A DNA stretch of 57,429 nt, taken from NCBI GenBank assembly GCA_026398065.1, contig JAPLTR010000271.1:1-57429 (forward strand), read 5' to 3'. The position numbers and the translations under genes are program-made. Below, piece after piece: positions 11,978 through 57,429 of this stretch (the stretch's first letter is position 1; every line of letters starts with the position of its first letter). Below the pieces are notes generated by a model. It was not told the DNA's origin, ran no database searches, and saw only the letters and a program-made list of their open reading frames with translations. The DNA comes from Verrucomicrobiota bacterium. GTDB taxonomy: Bacteria > Verrucomicrobiota > Verrucomicrobiia > Opitutales > Opitutaceae.

Positions 11978-11998
11978 AACATCCCCGCACACACACAC

Positions 11999-13444: not shown

Positions 13445-14146
13445 ATGTCCTCGACGAATCCCTCCCTCATCAAGCTCGACGGCGTCACCAAGGTCTTCCT
13501 CACCGACGAGGTTGAGACGCACGCCCTCTCTGGCATCCACCTCGACATCCGCCAAGGCGAGTACGTCGCCATCGCCGGCCCCTCCGGCTGCGGCAAGTCC
13601 ACCCTCCTCTCCATCCTCGGCCTCCTCGACTCCCCGAGCGACGGCACCTACACCCTCCACGGCCGCCCCGTCCAGCACCTCTCGCTCCCCGAACGCGCCC
13701 GCATCCGCAACCGCGAGATCGGCTTCATCTTTCAGTCGTTCAATCTCATCGGTGACCTCACCGTCTACGAAAACGTCGAGCTGCCCCTCACCTACCGCGG
13801 CATGCCCGCCAGCGAGCGCAAGGCCGCCGTCACCGCCGCCCTCGAGAAGGTCGGCATGGGCCACCGCGCCAAGCACCTCCCCTCCCAGCTCTCCGGCGGT
13901 CAGCAGCAGCGCGTCGCCGTCGCCCGCGCCCTCGCCGGCTCGCCCGCCGTCCTCCTCGCCGACGAGCCCACCGGCAATCTCGACTCGAAAAACGGCGACT
14001 CCGTCATGGCCCTCCTCGCCGACCTCCACAAGGGCGGCGCGACCATCGTGATGGTCACGCACGACACCCGCTTCGCCCGCCACGCCGAACGCACCATCCA
14101 CATCTTCGACGGTCGCGTCGTGCAGGAGCAGGTCGAGCAGCATTGA
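13445..14146 (+). CDS. MacB/LolD-type ABC transporter ATP-binding protein
   Basis: 233 aa. Walker A GPSGCGKST, Q-loop, signature LSGGQQQRVAVARAL, Walker B VLLADEPTGNLD, and H-loop VMVTHD. Confidence 0.92.
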   Translation: MSSTNPSLIKLDGVTKVFLTDEVETHALSGIHLDIRQGEYVAIAGPSGCGKSTLLSILGLLDSPSDGTYTLHGRPVQHLSLPERARIRNREIGFIFQSFNLIGDLTVYENVELPLTYRGMPASERKAAVTAALEKVGMGHRAKHLPSQLSGGQQQRVAVARALAGSPAVLLADEPTGNLDSKNGDSVMALLADLHKGGATIVMVTHDTRFARHAERTIHIFDGRVVQEQVEQH

Positions 14147-21860: not shown

Positions 21861-22193
21861 TTGGCCGCCTTGAAATCCAGCCTGTCCCGCCCCGACCCCG
21901 ACTTCCCCGCCTTTGTCAGCGAGCAGCTCGCCGCGATCCCCGCGCTCAAGAGCCGCCCGATGTTCGGCGCGCACGGCCTCTATTCCGGCGACACTTTCTT
22001 CGGGATCGTCTGGCGCGGCTCGCTCTATTTCCGGACCTCTCCCTCCACCGTCGCCGACTACGATGCCGCGAATGCCAGCTGGTTTCAGCCCAACCCCCAG
22101 CAGGCCCTGAAAACCTACCGCGAAGTCCCCGCCTCCGTCCTCGCCCGTCCGGCCTCGCTCCTCGCGTGGGCCCAACGCGCCATCGCCTGCTGA
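21861..22193 (+). CDS. TfoX N-terminal-domain protein
   Basis: 110 aa with a TTG start. RPMFGAHGLYSGDTFFGIVWRGSLYFRTS... matches the TfoX_N pattern (MFGG.GLY..G..F......LY.K). Confidence 0.6.
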   Translation: MAALKSSLSRPDPDFPAFVSEQLAAIPALKSRPMFGAHGLYSGDTFFGIVWRGSLYFRTSPSTVADYDAANASWFQPNPQQALKTYREVPASVLARPASLLAWAQRAIAC

Positions 22194-22250: not shown

Positions 22251-22379
22251 TCCCATTTCTGGGATGACGACGTTCCATCGTCGGACGCGCCGGCGCGCCC
22301 GTCCCGGCTTGGCTAAATTTTTAAGCGTTGCCCCGCCGGGCTTTGCCGCGCGACCCCGCCCCCGGGCACGCCCTCTGCA
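22251..22379 (+). promoter_or_regulatory. Sigma54 promoter module P3 (upstream of permease paralogue 4)
   Basis: GGGCACgccctCTGCA at 22364-22379 has GG-N10-GC spacing. The palindrome TCCCAtttcTGGGA at 22251-22264 lies 100 nt upstream of the GG. AAATTTTT at 22315-22322 sits about 50 nt upstream of the GG. Confidence 0.7.
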
Positions 22380-25012: not shown

Positions 25013-25072
25013 CCTCCGAAATCGTTCTCTTTCCTCGTTCTCTTAATCTTTCTCCTCCCCCTTTTCCCGCGC

Positions 25073-25128
25073 CACCATTCGTCATTCCCCTCCAATCGAA
25101 AATCGAGAATCCAAAATCGAAAATTCCC
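25073..25128 (+). repeat. 8 x 7-bp phased leader: CACCATT CGTCATT CCCCTCC AATCGAA AATCGAG AATCCAA AATCGAA AATTCCC
   Basis: Read directly. The A/T-rich 35-bp part (25094-25128) recurs at 27647-27680 with one mismatch. Confidence 0.9.
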
Positions 25129-25141
25129 CCCGCCGGCCCTC

Positions 25142-27568: not shown

Positions 27569-27586
27569 CGATCACCAACCAGCCGT

Positions 27587-27614
27587 CTGCATTCGACCTT
27601 CGTCATTGGTCATT
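27587..27614 (+). repeat. 4 x 7-bp tandem repeat (CTGCATT CGACCTT CGTCATT GGTCATT)
   Basis: Read directly. Same NNNCATT family as 25073, 30145, 35070 and 40634. Confidence 0.85.
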
Positions 27615-27646
27615 TCCCCTCCCGCAACCACCCCGCGGCCCCGCCG

Positions 27647-27680
27647 AATCGAAAATCGAGAATCCCAAATCGAAAATTCC
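27647..27680 (+). repeat. A/T-rich heptad element AATCGAA AATCGAG AATCCCA AATCGAA AATTCC abutting the ATG
   Basis: 33/34 identical to 25094-25127. Directly precedes ATG 27681. Confidence 0.9.
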
Positions 27681-30095: not shown

Positions 30096-30144
30096 CGAAT
30101 ACCGGATGACGGAGGCCCCCCGCACCGGTCGCCCCCTCGCAATC

Positions 30145-30186
30145 CGTCCTTCGTCACTAGCCATTAGGCATTGGTCATTCGTCATT
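30145..30186 (+). repeat. 6 x 7-bp tandem repeat (CGTCCTT CGTCACT AGCCATT AGGCATT GGTCATT CGTCATT)
   Basis: Read directly. Followed by CCCC, 42 nt before ATG 30229. Confidence 0.9.
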
Positions 30187-30228
30187 CCCCGGTAACCTTT
30201 CCCTTCCCGGCGAGTTTTCGGTTGCGCC

Positions 30229-32641
30229 ATGCTTGCCGATCTCAAGTTCGCCCTCCGCCAGCTCGCGAAATCCCCCGGCTTCACCGCCGTCGCCGTCCTC
30301 TCCCTCGCCCTCGGCATCGGGGCCAACACCGCCGTCTTCAGCCTGATGAAGGCCGTCCTGCTCGAAATGCTGCCAGTCAGGGCCCCGCAGGAACTCGTCA
30401 TCTTCAACTGGCTCGCCGAGGAAAACGTCGGCCCTCAGTCCTCCAGCGGCTGGAGCACCACGGAGCCCGGTTCCAACCAGCGCACCAGCACGTCGTTTTC
30501 CCTCGCCACCTTCGAGGCGTTTCAAAAACAGCCCGGTCCCCTCTCCGCCGTCTTCGCTTTCGCCCCCACCGGTGGATTCAACGTGATCGTCGATGGTACC
30601 GCCGAGATCGCGGGCGGCTGTCAGGTTGCTTCCGGCGGCTATCATCTCGGACTCGGCGTCACGGCCGCCGCCGGCCGCCTTTTCACCCCCGCCGACGACC
30701 TTCCTTCGGCCGAGCCCGTCGCCGTGATTTCGTACCGCTACTGGCAGCGCCGTTTCGGTGGCGACCCGGCCGCCATCGGAAAATCCATCACGGTCAACGG
30801 CGTCCCCACCATCCTGATCGGCGTCACCTCTCCCTCGTTCAACGGCACGATGCAGGTCGGCGAAGTCACCGACATCACGATCCCCCTCGCCCACGAGACC
30901 CGCCTCAGCCGTTCTCCCTACGACAACCGCAAGCCCGGCTATTGGTGGGTCCGCATCATGGGCCGGATGTCCCCCGGCGCCACGCTCGCCCAGGCCCGCG
31001 GCGCCCTGGAGGGCGTCTTTCACGAAACCGCGCGCGGCAACGTCAGCGCGAGCACCTGCCCGGCGCGCCCGCCGTCGACCCCGCCACGATTCCCCTGCCT
31101 CAGCTCCGCGCCGAGCCCGGCGGCCAGGGTCTCTACGAGGCGCGGCGCAACTACGAGCAGTCGCTGCGGCTCCTCCAGGGCGTCGTCGCCCTCGTCCTGC
31201 TCGTCGCCTGCGCCAACGTCGCCAATCTGGCCTCGTGTTCTCCCTCTGGGGGGCGCGGGCCCTCCTTGCCCTGAAGCCGTTTGGCTCCGGCACGCTCGAT
31301 CTCGACACCTCCCTCGACTGGCGCGTGCTGGGCTTCACCTCCGCCATCGCGCTCGCGACCGGCATTGTCTTCGGCCTCGCCCCCGCCCTCCGCGCCACGC
31401 GCCTGAACCTCACCGCCGAGTTCCAGGGCGGCGCGCGCACCCTCGGCGCCGGCTCGCGCTCCGCCCTCGCGAAATCCCTGATGGTCGTCCAGGTCGCCCT
31501 CTCCCTCGTGCTGCTCGTCGGCGCCGGGCTGTTCGTCCGCACGCTGCGCAACCTCCAAAACGTCGATGTCGGTTTCAACCGAGAGCAGTTGCTGCTGTTT
31601 CAGATCAACGCCGCCGCCAACGGCGCCACCGGCCCGCAGTCCCTCGCCCTTTACGAGCGCATGCGCACCCGCTTCACCACCCTGCCGGGCGTCAACCGCG
31701 TCTCGTTCGGCCGCATGCCGACGCTCAGCCAGAACAACTGGACCTCCGGCGTCATGGTGCCCGGCTACGTCCAGACCGAACGCTACGACAGCATCCGCCT
31801 GAACGGCGCCGGCCCCGACTACCTCGCCACCCTCGGAATCCCGCTGCTGCGCGGTCGCGATTTCACCGACCGCGATGTCCACGGCGCGCCCAAGGTCGCG
31901 ATCGTCAACCAGGCCTTCGCCAAAAAATACCTGGGCTCGGAGGAGGAGGTCATCGGCCGCCGCTTCTCCACCGACCGCAAGGCCACGACGCCCGACATCG
32001 AGATCGTCGGCCTGATGCGTGACGCGCAGTATTCCCATGTGAAGACGCCCCCGCCGGCCGTCGCGTTCTTTCCCTACGCCCAGCTCAATCCGGACAACGC
32101 CGGCATGGGTCATTTCATCCTGCGCTATCAGGGTGGCGAGGCCGCGCTCATCACCGCCCTCCGCGCCGCCGCGCGCGAGATCGACGCCACGCTCCCCATC
32201 ACCAACATCCGCACCCAGCAGGAACAGCTCGACCGGCTCTTCACCCAAGAGCGGCTTTTCGCGACCCTGTGCAGCCTCTTCGGCGGCCTGGCCCTCGTCC
32301 TCTCCGCCATCGGTCTGTACGGCCTCATGTCCTACGCCGTCCACCGCCGCACCGGTGAAATCGGCCTGCGCATGGCGCTCGGCGCGCTCCCACAAAACGT
32401 GCTCTCCATGGTCGTCCGCGAATCCCTCGTCCTCGTGCTCGTCGGCGTGGCGGTCGGCGTCGCCGCCTCGCTGGGTGCAACGCGCACCATCGCCAGCCTC
32501 CTCTTCGGCCTCTCCGGCACCGACCCGCTCACCTACGGTCTCGTCGCCCTCGGCCTGATCGCCGTCGCGCTCTTCGCCGCCCTGCTCCCGGCCCGCCGCG
32601 CCAGCCGCATCGATCCGATGCAGGCGCTGCGCACCGAGTAG
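30229..32641 (+). pseudogene. ADOP-type permease, paralogue 7: one frameshift plus an internal deletion
   Basis: ATG 30229 gives MLADLKFALRQLAKSPGFTAVAVLSLALGIGANTAVFS. The family sequence shifts frame at ~31040-31052 (..GVFHETARGN / ..EHLPGAPAVDPATIPLPQLRAEPGGQGLYEARRNYEQSLRLL..ACANVANL). It shifts again at ~31229-31240, resuming at VFSLWGARALLALKPFG. About 45 conserved residues (LLARA..REIAVRLALGA..TESLLLA..) are absent. The canonical end RRASRIDPMQALRTE* is present. Confidence 0.7.
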
Positions 32642-35090: not shown

Positions 35091-36337
35091 AGTGTAGTGT
35101 CCCGCAATTGACTCGGCATAACGGCGGCCGGCCGGCCGGGCCCGACTTCAAGAGCGGTTGCTCGCGGTGGAGGAGCGGGGTTTGGGTTGCGTGGAGCCCG
35201 GCTCGATCTGGTCGAGCCGTTGGCGGGCGCGAGCGATTTTTTCGAGGATGGACTCGATGCTGGCAGTCCACACGAAAGGCGCAGGAGCGGCGTTCCAAGC
35301 GGTGAGAAACTCGGTGATGGCGCGTTGCAGTTCGCACACGCTGTGAAAGACACCGCGCCGCACGGCCTTTTGGCTGAGTTCGGCGAACCACCGTTCGATC
35401 AGATTGAGCCAACTCGAACTGGTCGGGATGAAGTGCAGCACAAACCGGGGATGCCGGGCCAGCCAGCGCCGGACGCGCACGTGGCCGTGCGTGCCATAGT
35501 TGTCGAGGATCAGGTGCAGGGCTTTCCCGCTAGGGAACTCGGCATCGAGTCGTTGGAGAAACTTCAAAAACTCCTGGTGCCGGTGCCGAGGATAGCATTG
35601 GCCGATCACCCGGCCCTCGACGACTTGCAGGGCGGCAAACAACGTCGTGGTGCCGTGGCGGTGGTAGTCGTGCGTGTAGGTCCCACAGCGACCGGGCTTG
35701 AGCGGCAGGCCGGGCTGCGTGCGATCCAACGCTTGAATCTGGCTCTTCTCATCGACGCACAGCACGACCGCGTTCTGCGGCGGCGTCAGGTAGACGCCGA
35801 CCACGTCGGTGAGCTTCTCCAAGAACTTCGGGTCACGGGAGAGTTTGAAGCTTTTGGTCAGATGCGGTTTGAGCCCGTGATCCTGCCAGGCCCGTTGAAT
35901 CGTGTTTTTGCTGACCCCTTGCGCGCGGGCCATCTGGCGCGTGCTCCAGTGGGTCGCGCCAGCCGGCTTGGTTTGGAGCGTGGCATCGATCCACTGCCCG
36001 ACGCGCGCAGCGGTGTAGGAGCGTTTGCGCCCACGCCCGGCGGCAATCTCCCACACACAGCCGATGCCTTGCTCGCGCACCCGCCGTCGCCACAGCGCGG
36101 CGGTCTCACGCCGAATCCCCAGTGCGCTCGCGGTCGCCTTGTCGGACTGCCCTTGCGCAGCCCCGCGAATAATCCGGGCACGAAGCACCACCTGCTGCGG
36201 CGTCGATCCCGCACGGATCCATTGCTCAAGGCGGATCTGCTCCGCGTCCGACAAAACCACCGGCAAACTTGTTCGCGACATCCGGCCATCCTACCGGCCG
36301 AACGCTTATGCCGACTCAATTGCGGGACACTACACTA
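35090..36337 (-). mobile_element. IS630-family insertion sequence (1244 bp) with 30-bp terminal inverted repeats and a TA target duplication
   Basis: Left IR GTGTAGTGTCCCGCAATTGACTCGGCATAA (35092-35121) matches the reverse complement of 36306-36335 at 29/30 positions. TA flanks both ends (35090-91 and 36336-37). Single transposase ORF. Confidence 0.92.
35148..36281 (-). CDS. IS630-family DDE transposase
   Basis: 377 aa. N-terminal HTH domains. Catalytic region ...VLCVDEKSQIQALDR...LHLILDNYGTHG...SSWLNLIERWFAEL, the typical IS630/Tc1-like DD(35)E pattern. Confidence 0.9.
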   Translation of the reverse strand: MSRTSLPVVLSDAEQIRLEQWIRAGSTPQQVVLRARIIRGAAQGQSDKATASALGIRRETAALWRRRVREQGIGCVWEIAAGRGRKRSYTAARVGQWIDATLQTKPAGATHWSTRQMARAQGVSKNTIQRAWQDHGLKPHLTKSFKLSRDPKFLEKLTDVVGVYLTPPQNAVVLCVDEKSQIQALDRTQPGLPLKPGRCGTYTHDYHRHGTTTLFAALQVVEGRVIGQCYPRHRHQEFLKFLQRLDAEFPSGKALHLILDNYGTHGHVRVRRWLARHPRFVLHFIPTSSSWLNLIERWFAELSQKAVRRGVFHSVCELQRAITEFLTAWNAAPAPFVWTASIESILEKIARARQRLDQIEPGSTQPKPRSSTASNRS

Positions 36338-42189: not shown

Positions 42190-45100
42190 ATGAAACGCCT
42201 CCTCGCCCTCGCCACCGTCTGCGTCCTCGCGCTCGCGTCCGCCCTCTCCGCCGCCGACGCCCCGCTCCGCGTCTTCATCCGCTCCGGTCCCAAGTCCCAC
42301 GGCCCCGGCCAGCACGACCACCCCCGCTTCCTCGCCGACTGGGTCCCGCTGCTCAATTCCCGCGGAGCCGTCGCCAGCGGTGGCAACACGTTTCCCTCGG
42401 CCGCGCAACTCGCCGAGACTGACGTCCTCGTCATCCACGCCCAGGAGGGCGGCAACATCACCGGCGACGACCGCACGAACCTCGAGGCCTACCTCAAGCG
42501 CGGCGGCGGCCTCGTCGTGATCCACGCCGGCGCCGTCTCCCGCGACCCCGACTGGTACAAATCCATCCTCGGCGGTTCGTGGCGCTTCGGCACCACCAAG
42601 TGGCTCGAGGCCCCGATGCACCTCTATTTCATCGACCGCGCCCACCCCATCACCCGCGACGCGTCTAACTGGCAGATGGACGACGAGATCTACTATGACA
42701 TGGACCTCTCGCCCGACGCCCACGTCCTCGCCACCGCCTACACGCCCAAAGCCATCGACACCGGCGGCCGCGGCAACAAGGAGGCCCAGGCCCGCGCCGC
42801 CGAAGCCGTCGCGAAAAACAAGGCCGTCAACATCTACGACATCCAGCCGCAGCTCTGGACCTACGAGCGCACGATCGACGGCGGCACGCGCCCCTACCGC
42901 GCCTTCGTCTCCCTCCCCGGTCACCTCTATGTGAATTTCAACCGCCCCAACTACCGCGCCATCCTCCTCCGTGGCATCGCGTGGGCCGGGCAGCGCAAAA
43001 ACGCCGACGAACTCTGCCGCGGCGACGAACTCGGCGAAGCCCTGCGCTACCCCGAAGGCGGCCCCACCGCGCCGTCGAAGGCCGCCGCCAAGATCGAGGT
43101 TCACCCCGACTTCAAGCTCTCCCTCGTCGCCTCCGAGCCCCTCATCAACAAGGTCATGAACATCGATTGGGATGAAAAAGGCCGCCTCTGGGTCTGCGAG
43201 ACCCCCGAGTATCCCAACGGCCGCCGCAAGCCCAACACCGCCATCTGGAAGGACAGTGGCACGCTCAAGCCCTTCGTCCCCGAGCGCGACCCCGAGGACA
43301 GCATCTCCATCCTCACCGACACCAACGGTGATGGCATCATGGATACGAAGAAGGTCTTCGCCGACAAACTCGAGCTCGTCACCAGTTTCGTCCTCTACAA
43401 GACCGGCGTCATCGCCGCCACCTCGCCCGACATCTGGCTGCTGGAGGACACCAACGGCGACGGCGTGTGCGACAAGCGCACCAAGCTCTACACCGGCCTC
43501 GGCATCAACGACACCCACGCCGTCATCAACAATCTCCGCTGGGGCCACGACGGCTGGATCTACGCCACGCACGGCTACAGCCGCGGCGATGTGAAGTCCG
43601 GCGACGGTACCAAGTCCTTCGGCCCCGATGGCAGCGGGGTCGTGCGCTTCAAGCCCGACGGCTCGGCCTTCGAGCAATACTCCAGCCGCAATGGCAACAC
43701 CTGGGGCCTCGACATCACGTGGGACGGCCAGGTCTTCTGGACGCAGCCCACCAGCGGCACGGTGTTCTTCCACACCGTCCTCCCCGAGAGCGTCCTCGCC
43801 AAGGGCAAGCTCCCCGGCGTCACCTCGTGGAAGGGCATGATCACCAATCAGCGCACCTATCCGAAGATGGAGTGGCCCGAGCAGGCCTATGTGCAGATCG
43901 ACCAGGTCGGCCGCTTCACCGCCGCCGCCGGTTGCGCGATCTACGAGGGCGGCGCGTGGCCCGACAAGTGGAACTACAGCTACTTCACCACCGAACCCAC
44001 ACTCAACATCGTCCACCACGAGTTCGTCCGCCGCGACGGCGTCAGCTATTCCGTCGAAAAGGAAAAGGGCCGCGAGGAGACCGAGTTCATGCGCAGCACC
44101 GATCTCTGGTTCCGCCCGATCGAAAACCGGGTCGGCCCGGACGGCGCGCTCTACGTTGTCGATTTCTATAACCAGGCCGTGATCCACAACGACACGCGCG
44201 GACCGCAGCACAGCCCCGCCAACGCCGCCGTCCGCCCCGACCGCGACCACTACTTCTCCCGCATCTGGCGCGTGCAGCACAAGGACGCGAAGACCCTCCC
44301 CGCCGTCGCCCTCGACCGCACCAACCTCGCCAGCCTCATCCAGACCATCGAGACGAGCCCCAATACGCCCACGAAAAAACTCGCCCTCCGCCTCGGGCAT
44401 GAGAACTTCCCCGGCGACGCCCGTCTCAATGCCGTCACCCCCAAGATGGGCAGCCCCGCTTTCGCGCGCTACTATGCCGCCAGCGTCGCCTCGACCCCCG
44501 CGCAGCGCGCCGCGATCCTCGCCGAGTTCGCCGCCGCCTCCGATGACTGGACGAAGTCCGCCCTCATCGCCGGCGCGACCGAGCACGCCACCGACTTCGT
44601 CACCGACGCTCTCGCGAGCAAAGCCGACGCCGCCGCGCTGAGCGCTTTTGTCACCGCGCTCGCTCCGGCCATCCCGCCCACCGACGCCGGCCGCCTCGTT
44701 CAAGCCGCCTCCGCGCAGCCCGGCCCGCTCGGTGCCAGCCTCCTCCGTGGCCTCGCCCAATCCGGCACCGCCCTCCCTGCACTCGATGCCCCCACCACCG
44801 CGGCGCTGAAGACGCTCCTCGCCGCCCCCGAAACCGCCGCCAGCGCCCTGCTCCTCACCGCCAGGTGGGACAAGGCAGGCACTCTCGCCGACACCATCAC
44901 GCAAACCGCGCGCCGCCTCCTCACCGACATCGCCGACGCCAAGGCCTCCGATGCCCGCCGCGCCGAGATCGCCACCGCCCTCGTCGCGCTCCCCATCTAT
45001 CGCGCCGAAGCCCTCGCCAAGATCGGCGCGCTCCTCAGCGACCCCGCCGCTTCCGACGCGACCAAGGCTCCGCTCCTCGCCACTGTTGGCGAACTCGCCG

Positions 45101-46566
45101 GTCGCGAGGCCGCCGACGTGCTCATCACCGCCTATGTCCAGACGAAGTCCCCCGCGATCTTCGAGCAGTTGCTAAAGCGTCAGGAGACCGCCCTCGCCGT
45201 GCTCGCCGCGCTCAAGTCCAACCGCCTCACCCCCGCCGCCATCGGTCCCGCCAACATCGCCCGCCTCCGGACCCATCCCAACAACCGCGTGGCCAGCGAG
45301 GCCGCCGCCGTCCTCGGCGCCGCCAACGCTGGCTCCAAGGAAAAGGACGCCCTGATCGCCAAGCTCCTCCCCGAAATCCAAAAGCCCGGCGATGTCGCCA
45401 ACGGCCGCGAGCTCTTCGCCACCGCCTGCGCCATCTGCCACAAGTTCGGCGATGTCGGCCTGCGCGACGTCGGTCCCCCGCTCGCGGGCATCGGGGCACG
45501 CAGTGCCACCGAGTTGCTCACCTCCATCGTCGACCCCAACCGCCAGGTCGAACCCAACTTCTGGCAGTGGAACATCACGACGAAGAAGGGCGAGACCTTC
45601 GCCGGCGTGATCATCTCCGAGACCACCGCCAGCCTCACCGTGCGTAACCAGGGAGGTGATACAGAAATCAAGACCGCCGACATCGCCACGCGCGAAAACA
45701 CCCGCCGCTCCCTCATGCCCGAGGGCTTCGAAGGCCTCGGCGCCCCCGTGCTCCGCGACCTCATCGCCTACCTCGCCGCCAGTTCGACCGCTCCGCTCGC
45801 AGCCACCGCTTCGCCCGGCGCCGTTTCGACCCCCGACCTCACCCCCAAGGCCGGCGGCCGCGGCGACGCCCCGCTCCCCGAGCCCACCCCGATCGTCTGG
45901 GAGCCCCGCAAGACCCGCGTCCTCCTCATCGGCGGCGGCAGCTCGCACAAGTTCGGCGAATTCTTCGGCAAGGCCGACAGCGCCACCCTCCGCGCCGCCG
46001 GGTACACCGTGAACTACACCGAGGACCGCGATCAGGCCACCACCAACCTACCTCAGGCCGATGTCGCCGTGATCAGCGTGAACCGGAAATTCTTCGACAC
46101 GCCCGCGTACCGCAAAGCCCTCTTCGCCTTCGCCGCCGCCGGCAAGGGCATCGTCATGCACCATCCCGGCACCTGGTACGGTTTTGCCGAATGGCCAGAG
46201 CTCAACGCCCAGATCGTCGGCGGCGGCGCCCGCGGACACGACCGCATCGCGAAATACTCCGTCAACGCCCTCAAACCCGCCCACCCGATCCTGCAGGGCG
46301 TGCCCGCCACCTTCGAGGTCGAGGACGAGCTCTACTACATCAACGCCGAGCCCGACAAGATCCCCGCCGGCACCTCTCCCATCGAGGTCCTCGCCGAGAC
46401 CTCGCCCTCCGTGAAATACAAAGCCCCGCACCCCGTCGTGTGGGTCACGAAGCACCCCACCGCCCGCATCGTTGGTCTCACCATCGGCCACGACGAGCGC
46501 GTCCACGGCCTCGATCCCTTCAAGACCCTCCTCGTCAATTCCGTGAAGTGGGCGAGCGGAAAATAA
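42190..46566 (+). CDS. 1458-aa secreted multidomain protein: ThuA-like, beta-propeller 'membrane-bound dehydrogenase' domain, HEAT-like repeats, c-type cytochrome, second ThuA-like
   Basis: Signal peptide. N-terminal ThuA-like region (LRVFIRSGPKSHGPGQHDHP...VVIHAG...). FKLSLVASEPLINKVMNIDWDEKGRLWVCETPEYPNG plus TDTNGDG repeats. CAICH at 45427-45441. C-terminal ThuA-like region (RVLLIGGGSSHKF...GIVMHHPG...HPVVWV...). Confidence 0.75.
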   Translation: MKRLLALATVCVLALASALSAADAPLRVFIRSGPKSHGPGQHDHPRFLADWVPLLNSRGAVASGGNTFPSAAQLAETDVLVIHAQEGGNITGDDRTNLEAYLKRGGGLVVIHAGAVSRDPDWYKSILGGSWRFGTTKWLEAPMHLYFIDRAHPITRDASNWQMDDEIYYDMDLSPDAHVLATAYTPKAIDTGGRGNKEAQARAAEAVAKNKAVNIYDIQPQLWTYERTIDGGTRPYRAFVSLPGHLYVNFNRPNYRAILLRGIAWAGQRKNADELCRGDELGEALRYPEGGPTAPSKAAAKIEVHPDFKLSLVASEPLINKVMNIDWDEKGRLWVCETPEYPNGRRKPNTAIWKDSGTLKPFVPERDPEDSISILTDTNGDGIMDTKKVFADKLELVTSFVLYKTGVIAATSPDIWLLEDTNGDGVCDKRTKLYTGLGINDTHAVINNLRWGHDGWIYATHGYSRGDVKSGDGTKSFGPDGSGVVRFKPDGSAFEQYSSRNGNTWGLDITWDGQVFWTQPTSGTVFFHTVLPESVLAKGKLPGVTSWKGMITNQRTYPKMEWPEQAYVQIDQVGRFTAAAGCAIYEGGAWPDKWNYSYFTTEPTLNIVHHEFVRRDGVSYSVEKEKGREETEFMRSTDLWFRPIENRVGPDGALYVVDFYNQAVIHNDTRGPQHSPANAAVRPDRDHYFSRIWRVQHKDAKTLPAVALDRTNLASLIQTIETSPNTPTKKLALRLGHENFPGDARLNAVTPKMGSPAFARYYAASVASTPAQRAAILAEFAAASDDWTKSALIAGATEHATDFVTDALASKADAAALSAFVTALAPAIPPTDAGRLVQAASAQPGPLGASLLRGLAQSGTALPALDAPTTAALKTLLAAPETAASALLLTARWDKAGTLADTITQTARRLLTDIADAKASDARRAEIATALVALPIYRAEALAKIGALLSDPAASDATKAPLLATVGELAGREAADVLITAYVQTKSPAIFEQLLKRQETALAVLAALKSNRLTPAAIGPANIARLRTHPNNRVASEAAAVLGAANAGSKEKDALIAKLLPEIQKPGDVANGRELFATACAICHKFGDVGLRDVGPPLAGIGARSATELLTSIVDPNRQVEPNFWQWNITTKKGETFAGVIISETTASLTVRNQGGDTEIKTADIATRENTRRSLMPEGFEGLGAPVLRDLIAYLAASSTAPLAATASPGAVSTPDLTPKAGGRGDAPLPEPTPIVWEPRKTRVLLIGGGSSHKFGEFFGKADSATLRAAGYTVNYTEDRDQATTNLPQADVAVISVNRKFFDTPAYRKALFAFAAAGKGIVMHHPGTWYGFAEWPELNAQIVGGGARGHDRIAKYSVNALKPAHPILQGVPATFEVEDELYYINAEPDKIPAGTSPIEVLAETSPSVKYKAPHPVVWVTKHPTARIVGLTIGHDERVHGLDPFKTLLVNSVKWASGK

Positions 46567-47949: not shown

Positions 47950-50900
47950 ATGCGCCTACCCCTCTACCCCGTCGTCCTGCTTGCCTTCCTTTCCCTGGTC
48001 CCCGCGCTCCGCGCCGAACCCAAAACCCTCTTCGACGGCCGCACCCTCGCCGGCTGGGAGGGCGACTCCAAATGGTGGCGGGTCCAGGACGGCCTCCTCA
48101 CCGGCGGTTCCACCACGAAGAAGATTCCACGCAATTTCTTCCTCGCGACCGTCGCCTCGTACCAAAACTTCGACCTTCGCCTGAAGCTCAAACTCACCGG
48201 CGATCCCAAGACCGGCATGATCAACAGCGGCGTGCAGATCCGCAGCCTGCGCGTCCCCGACAACACCGAGATGTCCGGCTACCAGGTCGACGCCGGCGCC
48301 GGCTACTGGGGCACCCTCTACGACGAATCGCGCCGCAACAAGGGCATCGCCGCCTCCGCCAACCCCGGCGCCGTAAACGCTGCCGTGCGCCCCGACGATT
48401 GGAACGACTACCGCATCCTCGCTGAGGGCCCGCGCATCCGTTCGTGGATCAACGGCGTCGCCGCCCTCGACTACACCGAGGCCGACCCCGCCATCGCGCT
48501 CGATGGCCACCTCGCGATCCAGATCCACAGCGGCGGCATCGCCCTCGTCCAGGTGCGCGACATCGTGATCGAGGAGCTTCCGCCCACGCCCGACGCGCCG
48601 ACATGGGACAAGGTCGGCCATCCCAAGCCGCGTCCGCCCGTCGCCCCAAAGTCCGCCGCCCCCGCTCCCTCGTCCCCGGCCACCACCCCGGCTCTGCCCG
48701 GCCGCGACCTCACCTACAACGCCATCACCACCGGCCCGCGTTCGCCCGAGGAGGAGCGTCTCTCCTTCACGCTCCCGCCCGGTTTCGAGATCGAGCTCGT
48801 CGCCGCCGAATCCGAGGGCCTCGGCAAATTCGTCAACGTCACTTGGGACGCCCGCATGCGCCTCTGGTCGATGACGGCCCTCGAATACCCCGTCGACGGC
48901 AACGAGCAAAAGGCCGCCTCCGACGCCCTCTTCGCCGCCGGGGGCCGCGACAAGGTCGTGGTCTTCGACGCGCCCTACGCCACCCCCGCACCCGGCCGCG
49001 CCGCCGTCACCACCCCGCCGCGCATTTTTGCCCAGGGTCTCGTGATGCCCCTCGGCGTCCAGCCCTATCAAGACGGCGCCCTGGTCCAGTACGGCACCGA
49101 CATCCGCTTCTACCGCGACACCGACGCCGACGGCCGCGCCGACCGCCATGAGGTCATCCTCACCGGCTTCGGTACCCAGGACTCGCACCTGTTTCCCCAC
49201 CAGTTTCTCCGCCAGCCCGGCAGCCAGATTTTCGTCGCCCAGGGACTCTTCAACTACTCGAAGGTCCGCCGGCCCGACGGCCGCCCGTTCGCCGACGGCT
49301 CCACAGAAATCGCGTTCAACCAGTGCAAGCTCGGTCGCTTCACGCCCGACGGCGCCCAGTTCGAGAGCCTCACCGCCGGCCCCAACAACATCTGGGGCCT
49401 CGTCACCTCGCGCGAGGGCGAGACGTTTTTTCAGGAGGCCAACGACCAGGGCTACCCCGTCATGCCCTACGAGCCCGGCGTCTGGGTCACCACCGGCTCG
49501 AAAGACCGCCTCCGCCCCTACCAGCCCCTCATGCCCCCGCCGCTCGCCCCCGCGCAGATGGGCGGCACCGGCCTCAGCGGCCTCGCCCTCGCCGAGGACC
49601 GCGACGGGCTCTTTCGCCGTATCGGAGCACCCGATACCGACCGCTCGGCAAAGGTCTTCTTCCTCGCCAATCCCATCACCAACATCGTCAACGCCGTCCG
49701 CGCGATCGCCGAGGATGGCCGCTACCGGTTCGAAAAGCTCCCCGACTTCCTCACGACCACCGACAAATGGTTCCGCCCTGTCGCGATCCACTTCGGCCCC
49801 GACGGCGCGCTCTATCTCGTCGACTGGTACAACAAGATCATCTCGCACAACGAGGTCCCGCGCACCCACCCCGACCGCGACAAAACCCGCGGCCGCATCT
49901 GGCGCATCCGCCACCGCGACCAGCCGCGCACCACCCCGCCCGATCTCACCCGTCTCGATGACCGCGCGTTGGTCGCCCAGCTCGGCGGACCCAATGCCCT
50001 CGTGTCCCGGCTTGCCTGGCTTGAGCTCACCGACCGCCGTGCCACCGCCATCGCGCCCGACCTCGCCCAACTCGCGGCCGACCGCTCCGCGCCCACCGAC
50101 CGCCGCCTCGCCGCCCTCTGGGCGCTCGAAAGTCTCCAGCCCATTTCGACTTCGCTTCTCCTCACGCTCGCCGCCGATCCCGCGCCCGCCCTCCGCCACG
50201 AGGCCGCCCGCCTCGCCGCCGCGCACCCACGGCCCGAGTCGGAATTTGTCTCGATCGCCACCCCGCTCGTCGCCGATGCCAGCCCTGCCGTGCGCGGCGC
50301 CCTCGGCGACGCCCTTCGTCGCGTGCCGCACGCCGGCGCGCCCGTCATGCTGCTCGCGGCCCAGCTCGGCCGCGAAGCCCTCCCCACCGCCTTGCCCTGG
50401 CCGCGCTACGAACGCGAATTCGAGCGCTACCTCGCCCGCTGGGCCATGGAGCTGAATCCCGCCTCCACGCAGGCGCTGCTGCAGTCGCCCGCCGGTCGCG
50501 CCCTGCCCCTCGAAAACCGCGTCCTCGCCACCCTCGCCCTCGGGGGCAAGGACGCCGCCACCGGTCTCGCCCGCCTCACGCCCGAGCTCGCGCGGCCCCT
50601 CGGCGACGAGGAGGTCCGGACCCTCGCCGCCCACTTCGCCGAGCCCGCCGTCCGCGACGCCCTTTCCCAATCCCTCGCCTCGCCCGCCACCCGCTCATCC
50701 GTCCTCCGCGCCCTGCTCTCGCTCCGCACCAGCCTCGATCCGACTCCTCTCACCGCGGCCCTCACGTCCGCCGCCCGCGCCCTTCTCACGGGCCCCACTC
50801 CCGCCGATGCCACGCTCGGCGCCCAGGTCGCCGGGGCGTTCAAGCTCGCCGCCGCCGAACCCGAACTCACCGCCCTCCTCACCTCGCTTGAAGATCCGAA

Positions 50901-52341
50901 ATCTAAAGCCGAAAATTCCCCCGCCCTCGCCGCCCTCCGGGCCCTCCGCGAAAACGGCCTCGGCCCGGTCGCCACGTTCGAACGCCTCGCACGCACCGCC
51001 GACGCCATCACCCGCGACGAGGCGCTTGCTGCGCTCGCCGCCTCCCGCGCTCCGGATGCGCCCGCGCGCCTCGTCCAACTCCTCCCGGCGCTCACCACCT
51101 CCCAACGCGGCACCGCGCTCGACCGCCTCGCCGGCACCGCCACCGGTGCCGCCGCCATTGTCGCCGGTCTCCGCGCCCAGACCGTCGCCAAAGCCGACGT
51201 CGGGGTGAGCACCGCCGACAAGCTCCGCACCCTTCTCCCCACCGACCCCACGGTCGCCGCCCTCTGGCAGGAACTCGGGGGCGACGCCCAGCGCGCCCTC
51301 CGGCTCGACGGCGCCAATGGCGACTTCTCCGCCACGCAACTCACACTCGCCGGTCCGTTCACCGTCGAATGCTGGGCCAAGCTCGACCCCGGCATCAACA
51401 ACCTCGACTCACTCCTCAGTGCGCCCGGTCACGTCTCGGTCAATTTCCACGCCGCCCAGTTCCGCGTCTGGATCGGCGACGGCACCAATGACATCGTCGT
51501 GGCCAGGAAGAAAACCGTCCCCCACGTCTGGACCCACTACGCCGTGACGCGCGACGCCCAGGGCCTTTTCCGCCTCTATCTCAACGGCGAACTCGACGCC
51601 ACCAGCACCGCCGCCAATCCGGCGACGCTCGACCACCTCGACCTCGGCCGCACCAATCCGAAAAACGGCGGCACCGCCGGCTGGCTCGCCGAGTTCCGCG
51701 TCTGGAACGTCGCGCGTTCCCCCACCCAGATCCGCGAGACCTTCGACCGCAGCTTCGCCGACCCCGCCGCCCGGCCCGCCGGTCTCACCCACGTCTTCAC
51801 CGGCGCCAGCTGGGGGCCCCTGAACGGCCACGCCCGCGTCGATTTCACCGACGACGCCCCGGCGCTGCTCACGGCGGCCGAGGCCGCCGTGCAGGAGCAA
51901 AAATTTGCCCGCTTCCGCGCGCTGGCCAACACCCGCGGCAACCCCGATCAGGGCAAAGTCCTCTTCACCACGATCTGCCTCGCCTGTCACCAGCACGCCG
52001 GCAAGGGCGGCCAGATCGCGCCCGCGCTCGACGGCGTCGGCAACACCGGCGTCGAAGCCCTCCTCCGCAACATTCTCACCCCGAGCGCCGCGATGGAAAG
52101 CGCCTACCGCACTTTCCGCGTGGTGCTGAAAGATGGCAGCGTCCGCGACGGCTTCCTCGCCGAGGAGTCCCCCGAGGCCCTCGTCCTCCGCACCCCCGGC
52201 GCCGAGGACCGCCGCATCGCCCGCGCCGACATCCGCCAGACCGGCTACCTCCGCCGCTCCCTCATGCCCGAGGGCCTCCTCGAAAGCCTCCCGCCCGAAC
52301 AAGTGAGCGACCTCTTCGCGCACCTGAAGTCGCTCCGGTAA
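47950..52341 (+). CDS. 1463-aa secreted multidomain protein: DUF1080-like (3-keto-disaccharide hydrolase fold), beta-propeller dehydrogenase-like domain, HEAT-like repeats, LamG/ConA-like, c-type cytochrome
   Basis: Signal peptide. LFDGRTLAGWEG...WRVQDGLL...NSGVQIRS...YRILAEGPRIRSWINGV...LAIQIHSGG. FEIELVAAESEGLGKFVNVTWDARMRLW. LRLDGANGDF...FTVECWAKLD...WTHYAVTRDAQGLFRLYLNGEL. CLACH at 51976-51990. The start lies 10 nt after the UPF0261 stop. Confidence 0.75.
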   Translation: MRLPLYPVVLLAFLSLVPALRAEPKTLFDGRTLAGWEGDSKWWRVQDGLLTGGSTTKKIPRNFFLATVASYQNFDLRLKLKLTGDPKTGMINSGVQIRSLRVPDNTEMSGYQVDAGAGYWGTLYDESRRNKGIAASANPGAVNAAVRPDDWNDYRILAEGPRIRSWINGVAALDYTEADPAIALDGHLAIQIHSGGIALVQVRDIVIEELPPTPDAPTWDKVGHPKPRPPVAPKSAAPAPSSPATTPALPGRDLTYNAITTGPRSPEEERLSFTLPPGFEIELVAAESEGLGKFVNVTWDARMRLWSMTALEYPVDGNEQKAASDALFAAGGRDKVVVFDAPYATPAPGRAAVTTPPRIFAQGLVMPLGVQPYQDGALVQYGTDIRFYRDTDADGRADRHEVILTGFGTQDSHLFPHQFLRQPGSQIFVAQGLFNYSKVRRPDGRPFADGSTEIAFNQCKLGRFTPDGAQFESLTAGPNNIWGLVTSREGETFFQEANDQGYPVMPYEPGVWVTTGSKDRLRPYQPLMPPPLAPAQMGGTGLSGLALAEDRDGLFRRIGAPDTDRSAKVFFLANPITNIVNAVRAIAEDGRYRFEKLPDFLTTTDKWFRPVAIHFGPDGALYLVDWYNKIISHNEVPRTHPDRDKTRGRIWRIRHRDQPRTTPPDLTRLDDRALVAQLGGPNALVSRLAWLELTDRRATAIAPDLAQLAADRSAPTDRRLAALWALESLQPISTSLLLTLAADPAPALRHEAARLAAAHPRPESEFVSIATPLVADASPAVRGALGDALRRVPHAGAPVMLLAAQLGREALPTALPWPRYEREFERYLARWAMELNPASTQALLQSPAGRALPLENRVLATLALGGKDAATGLARLTPELARPLGDEEVRTLAAHFAEPAVRDALSQSLASPATRSSVLRALLSLRTSLDPTPLTAALTSAARALLTGPTPADATLGAQVAGAFKLAAAEPELTALLTSLEDPKSKAENSPALAALRALRENGLGPVATFERLARTADAITRDEALAALAASRAPDAPARLVQLLPALTTSQRGTALDRLAGTATGAAAIVAGLRAQTVAKADVGVSTADKLRTLLPTDPTVAALWQELGGDAQRALRLDGANGDFSATQLTLAGPFTVECWAKLDPGINNLDSLLSAPGHVSVNFHAAQFRVWIGDGTNDIVVARKKTVPHVWTHYAVTRDAQGLFRLYLNGELDATSTAANPATLDHLDLGRTNPKNGGTAGWLAEFRVWNVARSPTQIRETFDRSFADPAARPAGLTHVFTGASWGPLNGHARVDFTDDAPALLTAAEAAVQEQKFARFRALANTRGNPDQGKVLFTTICLACHQHAGKGGQIAPALDGVGNTGVEALLRNILTPSAAMESAYRTFRVVLKDGSVRDGFLAEESPEALVLRTPGAEDRRIARADIRQTGYLRRSLMPEGLLESLPPEQVSDLFAHLKSLR

Positions 52342-54199: not shown

Positions 54200-55003
54200 T
54201 CAGTGCGCCGCCAGCCAGTCGCGCACGCGCGGGTTGAAATCCCCGATCCGCTCCCAGTGAAACGCATGGCCCGCGCCCGCGTACAGGTGCAGCTCCGCGC
54301 CCGGGATGCCGCCCGCGACTTCCTCCGCCATCCAGCGCGGCGTGAAGATGTCCGCCTCGCCGCCGATCACGAGCGCCGGCACCCGGATCTTGCCGAGCTC
54401 GCGCACGGTGTCGTGCCCCAGGCACGCCGCCGCCTGGGCCTCGAGTGCGTGGAGCGGCTGCGGCGCCGCGCCCTCGGCCGCCTGCTTGCGCCCGTCCATC
54501 AGACCCGCGAGCCCCGCCGCGTCGTCCCACGTCGGCTTCGAGAAGATCAGGAGCTGGATGTACGTCATGAACTCCTCCGGCCGCAGCCGCGCCTTGATCG
54601 CCATCATATGCTCGAACACCCCGCGCGCGTACGCGTCGCACCGCGCCCACGGGCACATCAGCACCAGCGAGCGCACGCGCCCCGGATGCCGCAGCGCGAG
54701 CTGCTGTGCGATGATGCTGCCCATCGAACAGCCCACCACGCGCACCTGCTCCAACCCGAGCGCATCGAGCAACCCGACGAAGTCGTCCGCCATCATCGCG
54801 CTCGTGTACGGCCCCGCCGGCTTGTCCGTCAGGCCCACGCCGCGGTTGTCGGGCAGGATGCACCGGAAACTTTTCGCCCAGAACTCCGCGTGCTTCTCCC
54901 ACACCCCGCCGGGCGCGGTGATGCCCATGATGAGCAGCACCGGCTCGCCGGCGCCGCGCTCCTCATAGTACAGCCGGATTCCGTTGGTCGTGACGTGGGG
55001 CAT
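54200..55003 (-). CDS. Alpha/beta-fold hydrolase
   Basis: 267 aa. Oxyanion region PVLLIMGI, nucleophile elbow GCSMG, and a C-terminal GAGHAFHWE histidine motif. Confidence 0.8.
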   Translation of the reverse strand: MPHVTTNGIRLYYEERGAGEPVLLIMGITAPGGVWEKHAEFWAKSFRCILPDNRGVGLTDKPAGPYTSAMMADDFVGLLDALGLEQVRVVGCSMGSIIAQQLALRHPGRVRSLVLMCPWARCDAYARGVFEHMMAIKARLRPEEFMTYIQLLIFSKPTWDDAAGLAGLMDGRKQAAEGAAPQPLHALEAQAAACLGHDTVRELGKIRVPALVIGGEADIFTPRWMAEEVAGGIPGAELHLYAGAGHAFHWERIGDFNPRVRDWLAAH

Positions 55004-55066
55004 GGCAAAAAATCGTATCCAGTTTAATATTACAATCGGGGTGTCACATTCCGCCTTCCGCCACCC

Positions 55067-55894
55067 TCACCGCTTCAGCGCCGGGATCAGTGTTTCGCGG
55101 ATCCACTTCCCGTCGTGCGTGGTCACGCCGTCCGGGTCCTCGACGGCCTGCGCCGCCTCGTCCTCGCAGACGATCCAGCCCGCGTACTTCCGGTCGAGCA
55201 GCCACTGCGTGATGCCCACGAGGTCGACCTTGCCCTCGCCCATCAGCGCAAACTCCGGCTGTCCGTCCCAGTCCTTGAAGTGCACCAGGTTGATCATCTC
55301 GGCGTACTCGCGCATCTTCGCGAGCGGGTTCATGCCGCCGTTCGCCATGTGGCCCACGTCCGGCGTCCAGCCCGTGACCGAGCGGTCGAGCCGCTCCAGG
55401 ATCGCGCGGTAGTCCGACTCCGTGCGGTTCGTCGAGTGGTGCGGCGAGTTCGGATGGAAACTCGCCGGCACGCCCGCCTTCGCCGCGCGCCGCGACACCG
55501 TGTTGAGGTTCGCGACGAGGTTCTTCTGGCGCTGCTCCAGGTCGTGCCGCCCCTCGGGCATCTGCACCGTGCACAGCGTCGCGCCCGGGAAACGCTTCAG
55601 CAGCGCGATCGTCGCGTCCGCCTGCTCGCGCTCACTGGCCGTTTCCTCCGGTCCGTTCCACGACAGCACGAGCGCGATCGCGGCGAGGTCCAGCCCCGCG
55701 TCCTTCAGCGCCCGCTCCAGTTTGTCCGCGTTGAAATACTCGCCCATCCACCCGTGGCTCGGTGAGAAGCCCTGGAAGCCCGCCTTCGCGGTGACTTCGA
55801 TCATGTGCCCGATCCGCCCCGCATGGGCGCGACCCGAGTCTTTCATGAACCACGTGTAAGTTTCAGCGCCGAAGCGGAAGGGGAGGGGTGACAT
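55067..55894 (-). CDS. Xylose-isomerase-like TIM-barrel protein (sugar phosphate isomerase/epimerase family)
   Basis: 275 aa from ATG 55894 (the track ORF is extended upstream). ...FGAETYTWF...FHPNSPHHS...DVGHMANGG...VHFKDWDG... is the typical metal-ligand pattern. Confidence 0.7.
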   Translation of the reverse strand: MSPLPFRFGAETYTWFMKDSGRAHAGRIGHMIEVTAKAGFQGFSPSHGWMGEYFNADKLERALKDAGLDLAAIALVLSWNGPEETASEREQADATIALLKRFPGATLCTVQMPEGRHDLEQRQKNLVANLNTVSRRAAKAGVPASFHPNSPHHSTNRTESDYRAILERLDRSVTGWTPDVGHMANGGMNPLAKMREYAEMINLVHFKDWDGQPEFALMGEGKVDLVGITQWLLDRKYAGWIVCEDEAAQAVEDPDGVTTHDGKWIRETLIPALKR

Positions 55895-56071
55895 AAGAAA
55901 AAGCTCCGCCGATTCAGCGCGCGATCCGCCGCGATTCAACCCGGATGTGGCCTCGCCCCGCACAATCCTCCGCCGCCTGCCCTCTGCCCCCGCCCATCCC
56001 ACCGCCTTCACGTCGGCTCCCTCCGCCCCGTCCCGCCTCCCCTCGCACGTATGACATGCTCCCGCCGCGTT

Positions 56072-56199
56072 TCCCAAAAGTGGGAAATCCGCATTCCACA
56101 AACGAACCCCCAGCCGCCATCCGCTCCTTTCATGTAAATTTCTAGTCATTGCTAATCATCCCCTTAAACAGAATCGCCCGCTACGGCACAGCCGTTGCT
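56072..56199 (+). promoter_or_regulatory. Sigma54 promoter module P4
   Basis: CGGCACagccgTTGCT at 56184-56199 has GG-N10-GC spacing. The palindrome TCCCAaaagTGGGA at 56072-56085 lies 99 nt upstream of the GG. AAATTTCT at 56136-56143 sits about 49 nt upstream of the GG. ATG 56228 is 29 nt downstream. Confidence 0.75.
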
Positions 56200-56227
56200 A
56201 AACATCTGGCGCGCATCCGCTCCCGCC

Positions 56228-56494
56228 ATGAAAACCTTCCCGCTGACTTCCGTGTTTTTCGCCGCCTCACTGCTCCTGCCCCTCCTCGGTGGCGATACGT
56301 CCGATTGCTCGGCGGCCGTGTCCGCGCTGAAATCCGTCGCGGCCCGCGCCGGAATGGCCCGCGCCGAGTCCGCGCCCGCCAAGGCCCCTCCGGCCCTCGC
56401 GCCCGAGACTGCCCGGCCGCCGGCCGCCGCCGCGCCACGCGCCGAGGCCCCGCGCCCCGCCCGCCGCGACCGCCCCGCCCACCGCTTCATGTAA
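56228..56494 (+). CDS. Small (88 aa) secreted Ala/Pro/Arg-rich protein, first gene behind P4
   Basis: MKTFPLTSVFFAASLLLPLLGG... looks like a signal peptide. Third positions are G/C-rich. Its position matches that of ORF 5846 behind P1. I recognised no family. Confidence 0.4.
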   Translation: MKTFPLTSVFFAASLLLPLLGGDTSDCSAAVSALKSVAARAGMARAESAPAKAPPALAPETARPPAAAAPRAEAPRPARRDRPAHRFM

Positions 56495-56577
56495 GGCCCA
56501 CGCACGCTCCCCGGCTTCTTCCCGCGTATTCTCGTCATCACCTTTCCCGCCCGCTGCTCCCGTCCGCCGTCCGCCCC

Positions 56578-57240
<663 letters not shown>

Positions 57241-57271
57241 GCTTCCGACGTCCACCCACCACCCCCACCCC

Positions 57272-57429
57272 ATGAACCGTAGCTTTCCCCGCCTATTCTC
57301 CTGGTTATTCCTCGCTAGCATATGCCCCTTGGTTTCCCCCGGAGCCGAGGCTTCGGCTCCGACCAAGTCGCAGTTTATTTATATCCTGCGCCTCGTGCCC
57401 CGACTGCATGCAGATGCCGCGTGGACGCC
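57272..57429 (+). CDS. Secreted protein, 5' end only (runs off the window)
   Basis: ATG 57272. MNRSFPRLFSWLFLASICPLVSPGAEA is a signal peptide, followed by SAPTKSQFIYILRLVPRLHADAAWT. Open to the end of the window. Confidence 0.4.
   Translation, partial: MNRSFPRLFSWLFLASICPLVSPGAEASAPTKSQFIYILRLVPRLHADAAWT

Follow-up and report, generated by a model that had tools for sequence, protein, structure and literature searches.

The promoters read by activators of the NtrC/ZraR/AtoC type, such as glnAp2 and zraP of E. coli, combine a GG-N10-GC core with tandem dyads located about 100–140 bp upstream and with an A/T-rich or IHF-type region between the two. Their activators consist of a receiver domain, an AAA+ domain, and a Fis-type helix-turn-helix (HTH) domain and are autoregulated together with the cognate kinase. 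Here we analyzed a site with the same arrangement, designated P4, which lies near the 3′ end of contig JAPLTR010000271.1 (assembly GCA_026398065.1) of a Verrucomicrobiota bacterium of the family Opitutaceae. The window is the entire contig of 57,429 nt, and the genes beyond position 57429 are inferred from synteny alone. P4 is likely an enhancer-dependent sigma-54 promoter in a regulon of four promoters (P1–P4) under the NtrC-type two-component system encoded at 6193–9026.

P4 and its putative regulator differ from the described NtrC/ZraR/AtoC-type systems in the dyad (TCCCA-N4-TGGGA), in the GAFTDA loop of the activator, and in the targets, which are export genes as opposed to genes for nitrogen, zinc, or acetoacetate. 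The ZraPSR envelope-stress system produces a small periplasmic protein from a sigma-54 promoter under its cognate two-component system. The first gene behind both P1 and P4 encodes a small signal-peptide protein, and with the NtrC-type two-component system proposed to control them these genes may be analogous in position, but neither open reading frame (ORF) has homology to ZraP, CpxP, or Spy.

In terms of transport, the regulon resembles MacAB-TolC and the ADOP systems in having an HlyD-type adaptor, MacB/LolD-type ATPases, and permeases with MacB_PCD and FtsX domains, and its relatives possess a TolC-like OEP protein. Unlike in MacAB-TolC, the ATPase is a separate polypeptide (it is fused in MacB), and the permeases are internally duplicated. 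The locus is also similar to BceRS-BceAB in the genetic linkage of a type VII (FtsX/MacB) ABC system with a kinase whose loop has ~10 residues and in the position of the ATPase gene, which is next to regulator and kinase genes in ~25 loci. However, the regulator is of the NtrC type and not of the OmpR type, the permeases are ADOP and not BceB proteins, and the hosts are diderms and have an adaptor and a channel in the outer membrane. Because the regulator class differs, the system is not a member of the Bce family and is only a possible functional analogue of it.

Sequence elements of the P4 site

P4 is set in a 330-nt divergent intergenic region (55898–56227). The G+C content of the window is ~68%, and the relatives of its proteins belong to Opitutaceae and other Verrucomicrobiota. 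The elements of the site and its upstream flank are as follows.

55067–55897, minus strand: gene for a xylose-isomerase-like TIM-barrel protein, flanking the intergenic region
56070–56087, plus strand: upstream activating sequence (UAS) site 1, TTTCCCAAAAGTGGGAAA, a perfect 7+7 inverted repeat (TTTCCCA-AAAG-TGGGAAA)
56094–56107, plus strand: UAS site 2, a degenerate dyad (TTCCA-CAAA-CGAAC)
56129–56166, plus strand: A/T-rich tract between the UAS and the −24/−12 element
56135–56144, plus strand: conserved A/T block, TAAATTTCTA, ~48 nt 5′ of the −24 GG
56154–56166, plus strand: IHF-like site, AATCATCCCCTTA (AATCAT-CCCC-TTA)
56184–56199, plus strand: sigma-54 −24/−12 element, CGGCACAGCCGTTGCT (CGGCAC-N5-TTGCT), with GG at 56185–6 and GC at 56197–8

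The core of UAS site 1, TCCCA-N4-TGGGA, spans 56072–56085 and is the sole zero-mismatch match to the dyad in the window. We propose that the NtrC-type activator binds here as a dimer, with this dyad as its primary site. Site 2 is centred 22 bp (about two helical turns) 3′ of site 1, and its consensus, gTtCCac...CGgac, is found at a constant offset across 18 modules, as modules of this kind are called below. The consensus of the A/T block, aatttt.ta, likewise keeps a fixed offset in 18 modules, and the block may represent a DNA bend or a site for an architectural protein. The IHF-like site is a candidate that differs at one position from WATCAANNNNTTR, which we take to be the IHF consensus; its centre lies at about −50 relative to the predicted start, and a CA(A)-N4-TTA pattern was seen at the same offset in most modules. 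The GG and GC of the −24/−12 element are exactly 10 nt apart, and the element agrees with TGGCACG-N4-TTGCW at 10 of the 12 specified positions. Canonical −24/−12 numbering places the predicted transcription start at ~56210. No match to Rfam was obtained in 55000–57429.

Pairing of the dyad and the core in the window

Three further modules are present in the window.

5687–5816, plus strand: P1 module, before a 92-aa signal-peptide ORF (5846–6124), the activator gene, and the kinase gene
11849–11977, plus strand: P2 module, before genes for HlyD (11999–13252), an ABC ATPase (13445–14146), and ADOP permeases up to ~21.8 kb
22251–22379, plus strand: P3 module, before genes for ADOP-family duplicated permeases (22490–32641)

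The dyad pattern TCCCA-N4-YGGGA occurs at exactly four plus-strand sites in the window (5687, 11849, 22251, and 56072), and the core pattern GGCAC-N6-TGC also occurs at exactly four (5802, 11963, 22365, and 56185). The two are always paired (5687/5802, 11849/11963, 22251/22365, and 56072/56185), at distances of 115, 114, 114, and 113 nt, respectively, and the four modules align with shared blocks. In a simulation of 300 Markov windows, the dyad occurred 0.32 times per window on average, and the number of pairs was zero. The combination of dyad and core is far beyond chance.

Because both patterns had been derived from the window itself, we built weight matrices as an independent test from 14 modules, all from other genomes, and then scanned the window with them. 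The four window sites were the top four for the promoter matrix (18–24 bits; next best, 11 bits). For the UAS matrix, P3, P4, and P2 were the top three (38, 29, and 24 bits, respectively; next, 5.7 bits). P4 was second in both lists, scoring 21.6 bits with the promoter matrix and 29.2 bits with the UAS matrix. P1 had the best −24/−12 score (24.0 bits) and a UAS score of just 5.1 bits, which is explained by 6 extra nucleotides that part site 1 from site 2. This stretch of ~6 extra bases (a T-run; 5687–5730) distinguishes P1 from P2–P4 and from all foreign modules, and it may indicate weaker or different autoregulation.

A first-pass annotation of the window had claimed that the geometry of UAS, A/T tract, and −24/−12 element in P4 matches that of P1–P3 and had taken this to indicate a dispersed regulon. 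The shared blocks and the pairing at 113–115 nt bear out the first of these claims, and the second is backed by the geometry in the window, by detection with the foreign matrices, and by the footprinting and synteny described below. The distance of 34 kb that it gave between P4 and the regulator needs correction: 34 kb is the distance between P3 and P4, and the sole activator gene, at 6193–7560, lies 48.5 kb upstream of P4. The gene for a 110-aa protein with a TfoX N-terminal domain (21861–22193, plus strand), directly 5′ of the P3 UAS, may be what was presumed to be the regulator.

Conservation of the module in related loci

The ATPase encoded behind P4 (ABC4) was used to scan contigs from one genome per species and metagenome contigs, which gave 160 loci (numbered below with the prefix L). 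No contig with an ATPase of more than 88% protein identity was found in the genome and metagenome collections, and look-ups of the exact ABC4 protein and of the neighbouring hydrolase retrieved no record. The 47 Opitutaceae-like loci (570 kb) contained 40 dyads, 31 of which were paired with a sigma-54 core. The distance was 109–114 nt in 28 of the 31 pairs, and other spacings within 300 nt were not seen. The other loci (1.18 Mb, mostly from Acidobacteriota) contained 6 dyads, none of them paired at 100–126 nt.

The module stands directly upstream of the ABC4 orthologue (72–88% identity) in 21 loci. When P4 was aligned with its counterparts upstream of ABC4 orthologues in five other genomes, TCCC..GGGA, TTCC..CG, A..TTCT, TT, and GGCA..CG.TGCTAAA remained invariant, and the DNA between these blocks has diverged. 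Judged from this alignment, the invariant blocks amid diverged DNA are a phylogenetic footprint. In one locus (L027, 9701–9972), two divergent modules are arranged back to back, one pointing to an ADOP permease gene and the other to the genes for ABC4, OEP, activator, and kinase, which puts two predicted enhancers and two predicted sigma-54 promoters into one intergenic region.

Activator, kinase, and their linkage to ABC4

The two-component system of the window is encoded by adjoining genes.

6193–7560, plus strand: NtrC-type sigma-54 activator, with matches to Response_reg (5e-22), Sigma54_activat (9e-62), AAA_lid_14, and HTH_8 (7e-13)
7677–9026, plus strand: cognate histidine kinase, with the Pfam domains HAMP, PAS, and HATPase_c

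The domain set of the activator is complete, comprising a receiver, an AAA+ domain for sigma-54 interaction, and a C-terminal Fis-type HTH. It reaches none of the NCBIfam equivalog cut-offs, including those for AtoC (393 of 714 bits), NtrC (373 of 559 bits), and ZraR (356 of 760 bits). An assignment to the PEP-CTERM regulators PrsR/PrsK was rejected, with sub-cut-off scores for both the activator (373/503) and the kinase (69/300). Among the window ORFs scanned, none encodes a second sigma-54 activator. The kinase gene adjoins the activator gene in the window and in ~25 other loci. As read from its translation, the kinase has transmembrane helices at residues 13–35 and 46–63, a loop of ~10 residues between them, and a HAMP domain from residue 64. 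Its N-terminus (7677–7870) has no periplasmic sensor domain and shows an intramembrane-sensing topology.

In four genomes (L027, L028, L092, and L099), the P4-equivalent module precedes a string of genes for ABC4, a TolC-like OEP, the activator, and the kinase, and these activators are 79–81% identical to that of the window. The genes for the orthologous activator and kinase come directly after ABC4 in ~25 Acidobacteriota loci. This linkage in relatives indicates that the P4-type ATPase is an evolutionary companion of the two-component system. In the genome of the window, the unit of ATPase, activator, and kinase has been split between P1 and P4, with the module kept by both halves, and this is the strongest argument that the activator of the window reads P4.

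The P2-like and P4-like ATPases (~44% identical) are often adjacent in the Acidobacteriota loci L029–L079, where an activator-kinase pair then follows. The Acidobacteriota activators are 64–70% identical to the Verrucomicrobial one, and this identity across phyla suggests horizontal spread or strong constraint. With the patterns used, the Opitutaceae dyad was not found in Acidobacteriota loci that have an orthologous activator; the enhancer sequence there, if any, would differ.

Several observations weigh against the assignment of P4 to a sigma-54 regulon of this activator. The first base of the −24/−12 element is C, where the consensus has T, and the string alone, at ≤1 mismatch, has 3 matches in the window against 2.7 expected, as many as chance would give. 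No module stands directly upstream of six close homologues of ABC4 (L001, L002, L006, L007, L010, and L013). The activator loop is GAFTDA and not GAFTGA. All 24 orthologues examined carry GAFTDA, which has been listed among the tolerated variants and which is also present in the functional D. vulgaris enhancer-binding protein DVU2106, for which target operons have been reported (PMC4641369). The rpoN gene is not among the annotated ORFs of the window, although its presence in the genome is implied because a Sigma54_activat protein is encoded. Finally, the UAS was assigned to the activator by co-location, and a paralogue elsewhere could read the dyad.

Alternative explanations

P4 could be a real sigma-54 promoter that is read by a different enhancer-binding protein, with the activator at 6193–7560 serving only its neighbouring operons. 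Just 57 kb of the genome is visible, NtrC-family paralogues are often numerous in bacteria, and P1, which precedes the activator gene itself, departs furthest from the others in its UAS (5.1 bits, compared with 23–38 bits for P2–P4). We nevertheless consider this clearly unlikely. The dyad core and its spacing are common to P1–P4, and in the four genomes named above the P4-equivalent module stands at the head of an operon that includes the orthologous activator and kinase. Moreover, the activators of the window, L027, and L028 have almost the same C-terminal HTH, with an identical recognition stretch, and the same dyad is found in all three.

The dyad could also be an operator for a repressor or an activator, for example of the PadR type, with transcription of the sigma-70 type and an incidental match to GG-N10-GC. 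Dimeric repressors typically have dyads of 14–18 bp, the sigma-54 core string by itself is statistically unremarkable, and the NCBIfam/TIGRFAM description of the ADOP family ties it to PadR-type regulators in Acidobacteria. However, no sigma-70-like promoter was detected in 55800–57429, and the window ORFs scanned included no PadR gene. The dyad lies 109–114 nt from GGCA-N7-TGC in 28 independent cases, which is the geometry of an enhancer and not of an operator. We consider an operator very improbable. That P1–P4 represent copies of a dispersed repeat (a small mobile element or what a recombination event left behind), or that they resemble one another by chance and play no part in regulation, is hardly credible, for although the window has an insertion sequence (IS) transposase gene (35148–36281), the shared sequence consists of short blocks and not of the full 130 bp, every copy is intergenic and points at export genes, the blocks are kept at orthologous positions where the proteins are 72–85% identical and the flanks are not kept, and the simulations gave zero pairs.

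Genes downstream of P4

The following genes lie behind P4.

56228–56494, plus strand: small ORF of 88 aa with the signal-peptide-like N-terminus MKTFPLTSVFFAASLLLPLLGG; its ATG is 30 nt past the GC of the −12 element
56578–57240, plus strand: ABC ATPase ABC4, 220 aa, Pfam ABC_tran (E 1e-29), 83 nt after the small ORF
57272–57429, plus strand: 5′ part of a secreted YCII-like gene with a signal-peptide-like start, 31 nt after ABC4, running off the contig

No terminator was found between the small ORF and the ATPase gene. The small ORF has a Pro/Ala-rich middle that is largely of low complexity and a C-terminus of ...RPAHRFM. The G+C content at its third codon position (GC3) is 0.85, the highest of the codon positions of the frame; GC3 is the highest in nearly all P4-type small ORFs, which is consistent with coding. 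The small ORF had no Pfam or NCBIfam match. A profile search of 5.8 billion clustered proteins gave 7 relatives, all unnamed or hypothetical, and the one with a named source came from a Verrucomicrobia metagenome-assembled genome. The small ORFs behind P1 and P4 show no homology to each other, and a signal-peptide-like N-terminus is their only common trait.

At least 12 related loci have a counterpart of the P4 small ORF between the module and ABC4. At least 8 others lack one, and there the module lies 27–34 nt before the ATG of the ATPase gene. From this distribution, the ATPase gene is the conserved target and the small ORF a lineage-specific insertion. The P4-type small ORFs have in common a signal peptide, a middle rich in Pro, Ala, Ser, and Thr, and an end of ...[HWML]xFM or ...HMLMI[SR]. 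Their 3′ end is nearly always TTCATG followed by TAA or TGA (...FM), as seen at 56480–56497 of the window and in L003, L009, L012, L016, L017, and L082–L085; this end could reflect a constraint at the protein level or at the DNA/RNA level. In L008, the stop codon of the small ORF is mutated and the reading continues. The string TTCATGTAA from the end of the small ORF recurs within the A/T tract of P4 (56131–56139).

As read from the translation, the Walker A, Q-loop, LSGGQ, Walker B, and H-loop motifs of ABC4 are intact, and by its sequence ABC4 is a stand-alone nucleotide-binding subunit of the MacB/LolD/FtsE/DarD type. Its best NCBIfam similarities, all scoring under the cut-offs, are to DarD (253/375), MacB (195/966), LolD (181/308), and FtsE (191/265). 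ABC4 belongs to none of these named equivalogs, and, unlike MacB, it has no permease fusion. It is 44% identical to the other ATPase of the window (13445–14146). No permease gene adjoins ABC4 in the window; orthologues directly precede ADOP permease genes in L004, L006, L014, and L018, and ADOP permease genes are found upstream of ABC4 orthologues in many loci. Weak similarity to DarB, DarC, and DarD had prompted a reading as a darobactin-like ribosomally synthesized and post-translationally modified peptide system. This was rejected: the scores are far under the cut-offs, the signal peptide of the small ORF is of the Sec type, and genes for maturation enzymes are absent nearby.

The 52 aa of the YCII-like protein are 53% and 43% identical to the 133/134-aa proteins that follow the ATPase in L007 and L002, respectively, and these two match Pfam YCII (E 5e-10 and 4e-9). 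In both loci, the YCII-domain gene is followed by a further module and then by a gene for a TolC-like OEP. The ABC4 orthologue is followed by OEP in 20 loci, by OEP with YCII between in 2 more, and by ADOP permeases in ~4. The most likely continuation beyond position 57429, as predicted from synteny, is the rest of a YCII gene of ~133 codons, possibly a further module, and then a gene for a TolC-like OEP of ~500 aa. This OEP would give the pumps encoded behind P2 and P3 an outer-membrane channel.

The first-pass annotation had correctly described the first gene as an ORF of ~90 aa with a signal-peptide-like N-terminus and an ATG about 30 nt past the −12 element, and its second MacB-type ATPase behind P4 corresponds to ABC4. 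The further FtsX-type permeases that it expected past 57429 are probably wrong, given that the next gene is YCII-like and that relatives mostly have a TolC-like OEP. It had also named downstream genes unrelated to export as an outcome that would speak against P4; the TolC-like gene expected by synteny is export-related.

Operons behind P1–P3 and other features of the contig

The window holds at least 7 permease genes, compared with 2 ATPase genes. The permeases have MacB_PCD and FtsX domains, and two scores, 694 and 761 bits, pass the ADOP (TIGR03434) cut-off of 622. Four further ADOP-type permease genes belong to the P3 operon, one of them split into two overlapping ORFs. In total, two ADOP-type permease genes of the window are split into overlapping ORFs in different frames (16718–18232/18220–19266 and 30229–32022/31235–32641), which may represent frameshifts, pseudogenes, or assembly errors. 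The window ORFs scanned include no gene for an OEP. A short (CA)n run, cacacacacaca, is located at 11985–11998 in the P2 leader, directly 5′ of the HlyD ATG.

An 887-aa protein with weak similarity to protein kinases and Kdo kinases is encoded between the P1 operon and P2 (9066–11729, minus strand), and no homologue of it was found in any fetched locus. The IS-type transposase gene mentioned above (35148–36281, minus strand) encodes a DDE_3 domain and HTH domains and lies past the P3 permease array, where a local reversal of GC skew coincides with it. The GC skew is −0.2 to −0.3 where genes are on the plus strand and positive where they are on the minus strand (1–5.5 kb), indicating that the coding strand is markedly C-rich. 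Two proteins of ~1460 aa (42190–46566 and 47950–52341), with DUF7133 together with ThuA or a 3-keto-disaccharide hydrolase domain and with cytochrome c motifs, have no relation to the regulon.

Proposed mechanism and biological meaning

We propose the following mechanism for P4. The outer loop of the kinase has only 10 residues, so that the presumed signal would probably be sensed within the membrane or via a partner protein, after which the kinase would phosphorylate the activator. The activator would assemble on the tandem dyads at 56070–56107, and the intervening DNA would loop, aided by the conserved A/T block and the IHF-like block. ATP hydrolysis by the activator would then open the complex of the sigma-54 holoenzyme on CGGCAC-N5-TTGCT, and transcription would begin near 56210. 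The predicted transcript would carry the genes for the small secreted protein of 88 aa, ABC4 as the stand-alone MacB-type ATPase, the YCII-like protein, and, by synteny, probably the TolC-like channel. Together with P2 (adaptor, ATPase, and ADOP permeases) and P3 (ADOP permeases), P4 would bring about the joint induction of every part of MacAB-TolC-like envelope exporters.

A bolder proposal, which we regard as doubtful, is that ABC4, the near-loopless kinase, and the sigma-54 activator form a transporter-coupled signalling unit, a sigma-54-dependent counterpart of Bce in a diderm, that tunes P1–P4 by exporter activity. If so, the secreted proteins ending in ...xFM would be periplasmic feedback modulators or cargo, and the adjacency of ABC4, activator, and kinase in Verrucomicrobiota and Acidobacteriota would mark a widespread, undescribed circuit for "orphan" ADOP permeases.

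The regulon completed by P4 is undescribed, yet its mechanism is conventional, and P4 alters no general principle of sigma-54 regulation. Literature searches brought up only two papers that mention the ADOP family, neither of which was opened, and among the papers that surfaced none ties ADOP to sigma-54 or reports such a regulon in Verrucomicrobia. The combination of TCCCA-N4-YGGGA, a distance of 109–114 nt, and GGCA-N7-TGC provides a signature with which Opitutaceae genomes can be scanned for export regulons. If P4 works as proposed, it would define a coherent regulon in a poorly studied bacterial family, made up of the adaptor, both ATPases, no fewer than 7 ADOP permeases, and probably a channel in the outer membrane, and it would connect the scarcely studied ADOP permeases with both an ATPase and one particular sigma-54 two-component system.

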